Part shown: piece after piece, positions 37,781 to 40,499 of the stretch | How the letters are laid out: each line of letters opens with the position of its first letter | Numbering within the stretch: the stretch's first letter is position 1 | DNA from: Podarcis gaigeae | Taxonomy: Eukaryota | Assembly: GCA_964106915.2 (NCBI GenBank) | Contig: OZ066919.1 | Length of the DNA: 64,000 nt | Reading direction: 5' to 3' (one strand) | Position numbers and translations under genes: made by a program | Notes under the pieces: model-generated | Told to the model about the DNA's origin: nothing | What the model saw: the letters and a program-made list of their open reading frames with translations, nothing else | Database searches by the model: none

Positions 37781-37982
37781 CTGAGGAGATTGGCGTGCAG
37801 AACTTGTCTGAGTTCCTCCTGCGAATAGGCCCTACATTGTGTAAAGTGGATGAGCTGATGACAGAAGGGCCCTGCCGCAATGGAGTAATGGGTGCAGTAG
37901 CAGAGGTGGGGGGATGAGGTAATCCATCAGGGAAGGTATCAGAAGTGCTCTTGGAGAGGGTGGCGCTGGAAACCAGGTTCAG
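37781..37982 (-). CDS. FOXP4: FOXP4 coding exon (LNLV motif to pre-forkhead linker), 202 nt
   Basis: tttttgagcag|CTGAACCTG...TCCTCAG|gtgaga; encodes [67 protein letters not shown]; phase 0/1. Confidence 0.94.
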
Positions 37983-40415
37983 CTGCTCAAAAAGGATGAC
38001 AAACTATTATTAGAATCAACCCAAGAGACAGAGAGGTGTCTGGGTACGCAACAGTTTTCTATATGGACATAGCACATAGCTGCTCAACTTCTATCAATGA
38101 AGATATAGAGGTTGGGTGAAAGGCAGACGCACACCACCGAGGGTCTACTAATCAATTCAGCAGCAAAGATTGAAACAGCCACCTCAGATAAGCACTTGAG
38201 ACTCATCAACTACAATGGAAGGGCTCGATATGGATGAGAAATCAGATCATACTCTGCAAACGTGAATGAAACCTGAAACTCTTTACTAGCTACATCAAAG
38301 CCAGTTGTTAGAAACGTGAAAGAACCAGATGATCATCTAGTACAATATAAAGTATTCCTCCCTGCTCAGTTTTTTAAATAAAAAAACTAATCCATAATTT
38401 TTGTCTCTAGCCGTTTTTTCAAAGCAAATGGGAAGCCAAACTTTAGGAGGAACGGTTTTCAGTTACAGCTAGCACAATTTACCACCTGTACTGCAGACGG
38501 GGGCTGAAATTACAAGATAGTGGCTTGCATAAATCCAAACATGGTCCAAGTCTATGAATGTTTATTTAGAAGCAAGCAAGAATGCGCAGGTGGGGACTGT
38601 TAGTGAGCTCATGGCTTAGAAAAGATTTGAGCTAAGGGCTTCCTGGCTGAAAGTGTGCACTCTTAGCTACTATGCTACACCACTTCCAATGAGATTGTCT
38701 AAACTGCAGCTTAACTTGGGGGGGGGGAATTAATTATCTGCTCATTTCATGAAGGTGATCAGGTAGCTGTGGATTTCATTTTAAAAACATTGTGGCATTG
38801 CCACAAGTGTCTCATTAGCAAATTGGAGCAATGCTGTCCCAGGATACAGCACAATTCCCAGTAGTTCATCAGTACCATTATCTATAGTCATATTCTAACA
38901 CTGACAGATAAGCATTATCTTTTGAAGATCCATGTAAAATTTCATCTCTTGCCAAGAAAGAGGATTGCAATCATTTCATGAGTAAAAAAAAATCAGGTCA
39001 GCTTATACAACCATATATTGAAGCACTGCAGATGTCAGTGAGCTCTTGGGGTTCGGAATGTAATTCAGTGATATGCATGTACTTTCTCTCTCTTCCTTCC
39101 TCAAAACTGTAACCATGGCCACCTCCCTTCTCATGAACAGGAGGGACTTTCAGAAACCACAGAGGGGAAACACATATTTTTATCATTGATGCAAGTTCTT
39201 CCAAGAGGGTCTCACACACACAGATGTGAACTAGAACCTCAAGAGAGCATAGATGTCACCAGCTGCTTTTCCTGAGATAGATGTGGGTCTCAAACACCCT
39301 AGAATGGCCAATAAGGCAGCACATAAGGAAATAGGTCAGGAAGGAGCCAGCAACACACCCTGCAGGGTAGAGGACACTAGGGTATGTTTGTATCAGCTTT
39401 GATTTCAGAATCTGGTGTGCTGTTTCAGCACTTCCAAGCAGCACTTTTCAGCCTATGTCTATGCAGTTTGCAGGACTGACACAAGTAGTGTGGTCTTTCA
39501 ACACAGCTGGCTTTCTAAACTGTGCAATGTGAATGCAAGGATGGCCTGGGCACAGCCTGTCTTATCCCAATCCCCTTGCTTCACTCCTTGTGTACAATAG
39601 CAGCTTGGGCTATCTGGGCATGCTCTGTGAGCTGTTGCCTCTGGGAGGTTGTCTCAGTCTGGCTTGATGTTGTGAGAACGAGTGATTCTACCTGCCTGCA
39701 GAAAGGGCCAGCACAGGTACCTATGGTTGTTTGTATTTCTATAGCACCATCAGTATGCTTGCATGTTGTGAACCGCGCTGAGATCTTCAGATGAAGGGTG
39801 GTATATAAATGTAATAAATAATAAAGTAATAACATGCATGACAATTCGCAGAGTCCAAGCGGACAGGTTCCTCTCTCAGGGAGATTACTAAGCCTATACA
39901 GTTTGAGTTATGCCTCTGTGAAATGCCATGGAGAAATGCAAGTGTAAAAGAGGACTTGGAGAAACAGATAGGGGAAAAGTATTGTTATTATAAAGAAGGG
40001 ACAGCTACCTGGTGGTTCATGGGCAGTATCTGGCAGGCATTATGATATTACATGACCCTCTATGGCTGTGACTGTGGAAAGTTAAGCTCAAGTAAACAAT
40101 GTTTGGGTTGTAGTAAAAGGGAGGATTCCGCAAGGGTGGAAAACTGGTAATCATCAGTTTAGGAGTTTCAATGGAGCGTAGGTGTACCTTTGCTTCCTCA
40201 CAACATCATGCCATCTACTAGGAGCCTAGTGGCTCAAAGGAACTCGTAGGAAATAGTTCCCGTTACTGTGAGTCTAGAAATGTTGTCACAGCCAGGGTTG
40301 CTTCAGCCCTGAGTGACTCTGGCAGGACAATATGGGCCTGAGGCTTGAGGTGGCAATCCCTTTTAGAAAAGAAAGTTAGAGCATAAAGGTGAGGAACAAA
40401 CTGAGCATTGCTTAC

Positions 40416-40499
40416 AGGCTGACTGAACGGCTTTGGCTCTGAAGGTCTCATATGGAGGTGGGCCATCATCGCCTGGAGACGCTCACTCTCCTTAGCTAG
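40416..40499 (-). CDS. FOXP4: FOXP4 coding exon, leucine zipper, 84 nt
   Basis: tttgcag|CTAGCTAAG...CAGCCT|gtaagc; encodes [28 protein letters not shown]; phase 0/0. Confidence 0.97.

Follow-up and report, generated by a model that had tools for sequence, protein, structure and literature searches.

The PLNLV motif of lizard FOXP4 is assembled by splicing, probably through one main acceptor with decoy AGs on either side

In lizard FOXP4, the five-residue word PLNLV is divided between two exons and exists in the protein only once they are joined. Li et al. are said to have dealt with this site in FOXP1 and FOXP2, and with CtBP binding, in 2004. Other AGs close to the acceptor would keep the reading frame and break the word, and the locus raises the question of whether PLNLV is a constant part of the lizard protein or is switched in and out by the choice of acceptor, as a preliminary description of this DNA proposed.

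The window is a stretch of 64,000 nucleotides from Podarcis gaigeae (contig OZ066919.1). The gene it carries is FOXP4, as first described: translation of 13 exons matches Podarcis muralis FOXP4 X1 at 533 of 534 positions, with one mismatch, and the zinc-finger, leucine-zipper and forkhead exons are closest to FOXP4, not to FOXP1 or FOXP2, whose like exons lie on other contigs of the same genome (67% and 58%). The protein of the exon at 37982-37781 equals that of Podarcis and Zootoca FOXP4 and matches birds and snakes at 97-99%. Three further 5' coding exons sit past the end of the window; 5' coding exons are found at window-equivalent 65262-65399 (contig 43899262-43899399) and 88738-88842. An N-terminal segment of 30 residues varies between lacertid and bird FOXP4 records (665 vs 635 aa), a difference that is likely a skipped exon. 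The forkhead-domain intron (33655-17366) spans about 16 kb; the one at 37780-37669 measures 112 nt. The parts of the gene that frame the motif are the following:

12115..59545, minus strand: 13 FOXP4 coding exons within the window, placed by translation match to Podarcis muralis FOXP4 X1.
40416..40499, minus strand: FOXP4 exon, end of the leucine zipper; it closes with CCT (40418-40416), which encodes the Pro of PLNLV, and the donor gtaagc comes next; both ends are joined in RNA-like contigs.
37983..40415, minus strand: GT-AG intron, phase 0, 2433 nt, splitting P/LNLV; a joint that skips 2433 nt is present in 8/8 runs.
37781..37982, minus strand: 202-nt FOXP4 exon opening LNLV; used acceptor CAG at 37982, supported by RNA-like contigs and a matrix score of 7.8.

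The upstream exon terminates CAG CCT/gtaagc (…SQP) and the start of the downstream exon is preceded by …ttttgagcag, and PLNLV forms only via the 40416>37982 splice, a point on which the sequence bears out the preliminary description. Within the intron, 39763-39832 is a short interspersed repeat-like stretch that is matched by many unrelated transcript contigs.

Assembled contigs from related lizards record this splice. Sixteen contig sets from four related organisms have a share of 0.08-0.12, roughly the exon share, and are treated here as RNA-like; none is recorded as RNA. Junctions were read in 8 of the 16 (8 runs on 7 samples, drawn from 5 studies and from 4 relatives that are all distinct from the window's species), and two full-coverage sets and four with a share of 0.57-0.59, likely DNA, were excluded from the count. 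The 40416>37982 joint is present in 8/8 runs, as is 37781>37668, and 43653>40499 is present in all four runs examined over a longer stretch. One RNA-like contig contains the complete 37781..37982 exon, with 0 differing letters in the pieces displayed. Joints to 37985 or 37949 are absent from those listed for the 8 runs, in contigs that drop rare forms and over a stretch that holds no minor-isoform control. In the pieces displayed, the exons of the relatives' contigs agree with the window letter for letter, which places the AAG inside the exon in these lizards too; what the contigs show of the relatives is their exons, and the test of the intronic GAG (exon start 37985) is therefore indirect. 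In one run, a further contig end lies close to the donor (40421/40450); it was weighed as the mark of a rival acceptor and rejected, as it does not fall at 40416. The contigs establish 37982 as the main form and not the absence of minor forms. Acceptor choice as a lizard switch finds no support in them: the sole use of 37982, which the preliminary description itself named as the contrary outcome, is what all eight runs display, rare forms aside.

Because every assembled transcript examined uses 37982, the main protein has PLNLV. Our best explanation, which we hold with considerable though not complete confidence, is that lizard FOXP4 carries the motif through this acceptor, and that the two other AGs are unused or noise-level decoys and not a regulated switch. 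The features that such an explanation has to accommodate lie within a few dozen nucleotides of the acceptor:

38009..38013, minus strand: CTAAT, branch-point-like by pattern match only; the predicted branch A is 38010, 28 nt upstream of the used acceptor.
37986..37988, minus strand: GAG, the first triplet of the GAGCAG tandem, which would start the exon at 37985; score 1.8, no use seen.
37950..37952, minus strand: AAG, a Lys codon and a latent acceptor that would start the exon at 37949, presumably homologous to a mammalian FOXP4 acceptor; score -6.8, no lizard use seen.

An exon start at 37985 would insert one Gln, and one at 37949 (…ccctctccaag) would delete 33 nt, the frame being kept each time. 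The positions first given for the three starts (37985, 37982 and 37949) are right, and all of them keep the frame; it is their competition that is not confirmed, with only 37982 in the contigs. Nor do they form a special set. Between -21 and +35 of the 37982 acceptor there are 6 AGs, four of them in frame; three go beyond the original list, of which the TAG at 38003 keeps the frame and the AGs at 37965 and 37947 do not. At the other FOXP4, FOXP1 and FOXP2 acceptors of the same genome, 21 in number, one or more in-frame AGs occur within +1..+45 in 19 cases, and at least two extra in-frame ones within -30..+45 in 8. With spare in-frame AGs this common at other FOXP acceptors, the set around 37982 is no more than chance.

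Scoring separates the three sites. We used a leave-one-out acceptor matrix of 24 FOXP acceptors, 13 fixed by protein match and 11 by homology, with two paralog acceptors that were not found in their loci standing outside the set; with 23 training sites, it is a crude measure. True FOXP acceptors score from -0.9 to 12.6 (median 6.8) on this matrix, on which 37982 reaches 7.8, 37985 reaches 1.8, in the low tail of the true acceptors, and 37949 falls to -6.8, a value that 14 of 34 ordinary in-frame decoys equal or exceed. Position -3 is G in 0 of the 24 acceptors and A in one. The used FOXP4 acceptor at 48601 (minus strand) is an AAG with adjoining purines (…atgtgtgaag) and, at -0.9, the weakest of the 24; AAG acceptors can work in FOXP4, since this true acceptor is a low-scoring AAG. 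The AAG at 37949 has 11 pyrimidines in the 15 positions from -20 to -6.

The GAGCAG at the intron end (37988-37983) fits a NAGNAG tandem acceptor by its letters, and the available text of PMC2699507 places it in the GAGHAG class, the typical pattern of tandems that splice constitutively to their downstream site, where it accounts for 227 of 331; the order of acceptor preference given there is CAG > TAG > AAG > GAG. The lizard tandem differs in this from the CAGCAG class, to which another tandem of the same gene belongs. At 50905/50902 (window 50908-50902, minus strand), lacertid RefSeq isoforms occur with and without Gln (KEQPLG/KEPLG, 2 of 10 without), and CAGCAG at this site is likely a real NAGNAG; its appearance in lacertid records indicates that annotation can catch a real tandem acceptor in FOXP4. 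At GAGCAG, only 37982 of the two AGs is used in the relatives' runs, as seen through contigs, from which rare forms are lost. Nor is the tandem conserved: among 14 different read-throughs of the intron end in FOXP4 (8 of sauropsid, 3 of fish and 3 of mammal type), an E, K or Q codon precedes the acceptor in 0, a count in which a TAG would not show.

These observations bear on a reading that is compatible with the best explanation and that we consider possible, if somewhat doubtful, namely that 37949 and 37985 are spliced at a low, unregulated level, giving in-frame products that would evade decay without serving a selected role, and that this noise was the source of the mammalian short form. 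Both sites keep the frame, rare forms are invisible in contigs, and the available text of PMC2699507 records 182 alternative GAG-containing tandems and predicts about 6% of the transcript-supported ones to be alternative. On the other side, neither contigs nor protein records give a direct sign of either joint, and the lack of conservation at the 14 intron ends does not favor a lasting tandem.

Two exon-anchored protein searches, limited to the best 120 of 732 hits in one and of 629 in the other, yielded 153 distinct proteins. Among the matches listed, 111 of the 153 read QPLNLV, 19 have intron-derived residues before LNLV and 23 have other forms, whereas PQLNLV and a clean 11-residue deletion are each found in 0 of 153. 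QPLNLV is also the reading in every one of the 23 FOXP4 entries named as squamate. Reptile FOXP4 has indeed retained the motif, as was proposed for this locus, and that is not new. Sauropsid retention and mammalian loss were already published in 2017 in PMC5409772, the available passages of which state the same evolutionary inference: mammalian FOXP4 lost LIG_CtBP_PxDLS_1 through an L>P substitution that postdates the synapsid-sauropsid divergence, while birds and reptiles keep it, and Mendoza et al. 2015 is cited there for the zebra finch FoxP4 motif. That work uses one isoform per species, and its available passages are silent on the splice junction and on the mammalian short form.

Mammals are where a short form is on record. 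Protein records confirm that mammalian FOXP4 has PLNPV; its long forms read PLNPVPGSSSFSK/VTVS, and its short forms begin after the aligned Lys. The human isoform without the segment, named in the preliminary description, exists, as isoform 6 (NP_001392755.1), and lacks LNPVPGSSSFSK, which is 12 residues and not 11; the short form also occurs in X4 (XP_011512593.1), rat, ferret, bats and 13 run-assembly proteins. We infer that the mammalian alternative acceptor is the homologous AAG, at the Lys codon, from which the in-frame loss after Pro would follow just as the lizard site would give it. The mammalian case differs in that 12 residues are cut, from a PLNPV segment without the motif, and in the next codon, which has G (Val) rather than A. 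An AG is present at the homologous in-frame position (37952-37950, the mammalian side being protein-based), and its use, seen in mammals, is seen in lizards in 0 of 8 runs and 0 of 23 squamate records. The records examined by name included no marsupial, monotreme or amphibian.

When a third protein search took the shortened junction as its query, its best 120 of 800 hits (cut-off near 62 bits) comprised 93 mammal-type short forms, 11 bird, 4 fish and 12 long or read-through sauropsid forms. The 93 include 13 from sequencing-run assemblies and one curated entry, human isoform 6. A clean sauropsid deletion is found 0 times in this best 120 of 800, though its expected score is 69.3 bits, at about the 11th rank. 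The 11 bird gene models do end the intron at the +33 acceptor, but all of them add intron-start residues (VS, VSVR, VSAH), none joins the normal donor and none comes from a run assembly. Their lengths follow mammalian forms, with 11 equal to the rodent short form and 24 to the human long form; 7 of the 11 equal the rodent short form. These features make the bird models likely to be homology-guided gene models, and we set them aside as support for the inner acceptor on the grounds of their intron residues, their lack of a normal donor and their mammal-like lengths. Four fish models repeat the 11-residue pattern of the bird models. Many annotated junction "isoforms" open with Val-Ser from the intron and have the lengths of mammalian isoforms, and PVS/LNLV is read in 21 bird- or fish-type FOXP4 records; these are likely annotation projections of mammalian proteins, although in birds PVS/LNLV could reflect a minor donor that is genuinely used.

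It is against these records that a regulated 37949 has to be judged, that is, an old amniote alternative site whose use in certain tissues or stages of lizards would yield a FOXP4 that lacks PLNLV and recruits less CtBP. The homologous site is in use throughout the placental mammals, humans among them, the lizard AAG is in frame behind its pyrimidine-rich stretch, the 11 bird models end their intron there, and FOXP2 truncations that lose the motif progressively lower CTBP2 binding (PMC5126810, in the passages available). We nevertheless find this account improbable: no such joint is listed in 8/8 runs whose exon pieces are identical to the window, the squamate records hold no example, the bird records neither reach the normal donor nor derive from run assemblies and mostly have the rodent short length, and the available passages of PMC5126810 describe PLNLV as inessential for FOXP2-CTBP binding. 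Its fuller version, in which the AAG would have been latent in FOXP1, FOXP2 and FOXP4 since their duplication, tissue-specific use would tune CtBP recruitment in reptiles, and mammals would have settled on the "off" state in two ways, by L>P and by heavy use of the short form, strikes us as equally far-fetched.

The paralogs FOXP1 and FOXP2 of the same genome have an intron at the same position and in the same phase, with donors CCT/gtaagt and acceptors cag/CT…, and they also have an AAG at +33, the inner AAG being the Lys codon of a conserved S-K. As the split, the phase and the AAG are common to FOXP1, FOXP2 and FOXP4, they are inherited gene architecture, and the split motif and the latent acceptor, by this comparison of sequences, predate the FOXP duplications. 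PLNL[VA] is retained in FOXP1, FOXP2 and non-mammalian FOXP4, with PLNLA in carp and trout FOXP4.

What the motif does for lizard FOXP4 is a separate matter. Its PLNLV is identical to the PXDLS-type word of FOXP1 and FOXP2, at the same place after the leucine zipper and at the same phase-0 intron, and the sauropsid motif is scored as LIG_CtBP_PxDLS_1 in the available passages of PMC5409772. For FOXP1 and FOXP2, binding to CTBP1/2 is reported. In the available passages of Estruch et al. 2016 (PMC5126810), CTBP1/2 bind FOXP1 and FOXP2 and not FOXP4, which agrees with the earlier statement that mammalian FOXP4 is a non-binder. The companion statement, that FOXP1 and FOXP2 bind CtBP through PLNLV, fares less well: the binding is there, but truncated FOXP2 without PLNLV still binds CTBP2, with binding that falls progressively, and the motif "may enhance" binding. 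This weakens the premise that PLNLV could act as a CtBP switch. We consider it plausible that lizard FOXP4 binds CtBP via PLNLV.

The same study suggests that FOXP2 residues 259-329 may suffice for CTBP2 binding, and the homologous lizard exon holds a second candidate word that does not depend on the junction:

48507..48521, minus strand: GLDLS, a second PXDLS-like word in exon 48601-48397, noted by homology to the FOXP2 CTBP2-binding region (PMC5126810, available passages).

Reptile PLNLV may accordingly have been kept for a reason other than CtBP, or contribute little, with CtBP contact made through exon 48601-48397 together with SUMOylation, an account we rate as conceivable without preferring it. 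Beyond the inessential role of PLNLV in FOXP2 and the GLDLS of the lizard exon, SUMOylation of FOXP1 at K670 is required for CtBP1 recruitment (PMC5429823, available text) and enhances CTBP1 binding (reviewed in PMC8339667, available text). Yet GLDL[ST] is found in sauropsids and fish and GLDLT or GLDLA in mammals, and human FOXP4 keeps GLDLT without binding CTBP1/2 (PMC5126810, available passages), which fits PLNLV or its flanking residues mattering and leaves a GLDLS contact with CtBP as a lead only; the retention of PLNL[VA] across the family also speaks against a dispensable motif. In the available account of HIC1, the motif is GLDLSKK, and lizard GLDLS resembles its start, without its lysines. 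TCF-4 (TCF7L2), with isoforms unable to bind CtBP, offers a model for the proposed lizard switch, but both of its isoforms are documented (PMC3671672, available text), and for lizard FOXP4 only one is.

Returning to the decoy explanation, we envisage the following course. From the predicted branch point at 38010, the spliceosome would skip a TAG that is too close and a GAG that is weak and take the CAG at 37982; the inner AAG (37949) would come three AGs further along than the CAG in use. On the mammalian line, the latent Lys-codon site would have become a real alternative acceptor, in a segment without the motif, and the lizard would represent the older, constitutive state. Several points weigh against this explanation: the AAG works in mammals, the AAG at 48601 is functional, 11 bird models use the site, and rare forms drop from contigs. 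We infer that the inner site became a working alternative acceptor on the mammalian line, in which the motif was lost from the segment; an activation confined to mammals and running alongside the decay of the motif we give an even chance. A literature search by title and start of abstract, with subscription papers outside its scope, found no paper on alternative splicing at the FOXP4 PLNLV junction, and none on an origin of the mammalian short isoform from a latent Lys-codon acceptor.

The findings call for caution with bird and fish FOXP4 junction "isoforms", which may be projected from mammalian proteins. The switch, if true, would be a simple route between CtBP-binding and non-binding FOXP states and would bear on FOXP1/2/4 dimers of the brain and the lung. 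With the lizard as outgroup, the short isoform of mammalian FOXP4 likely derives from a latent acceptor at the Lys codon, the segment around it having lost the motif.
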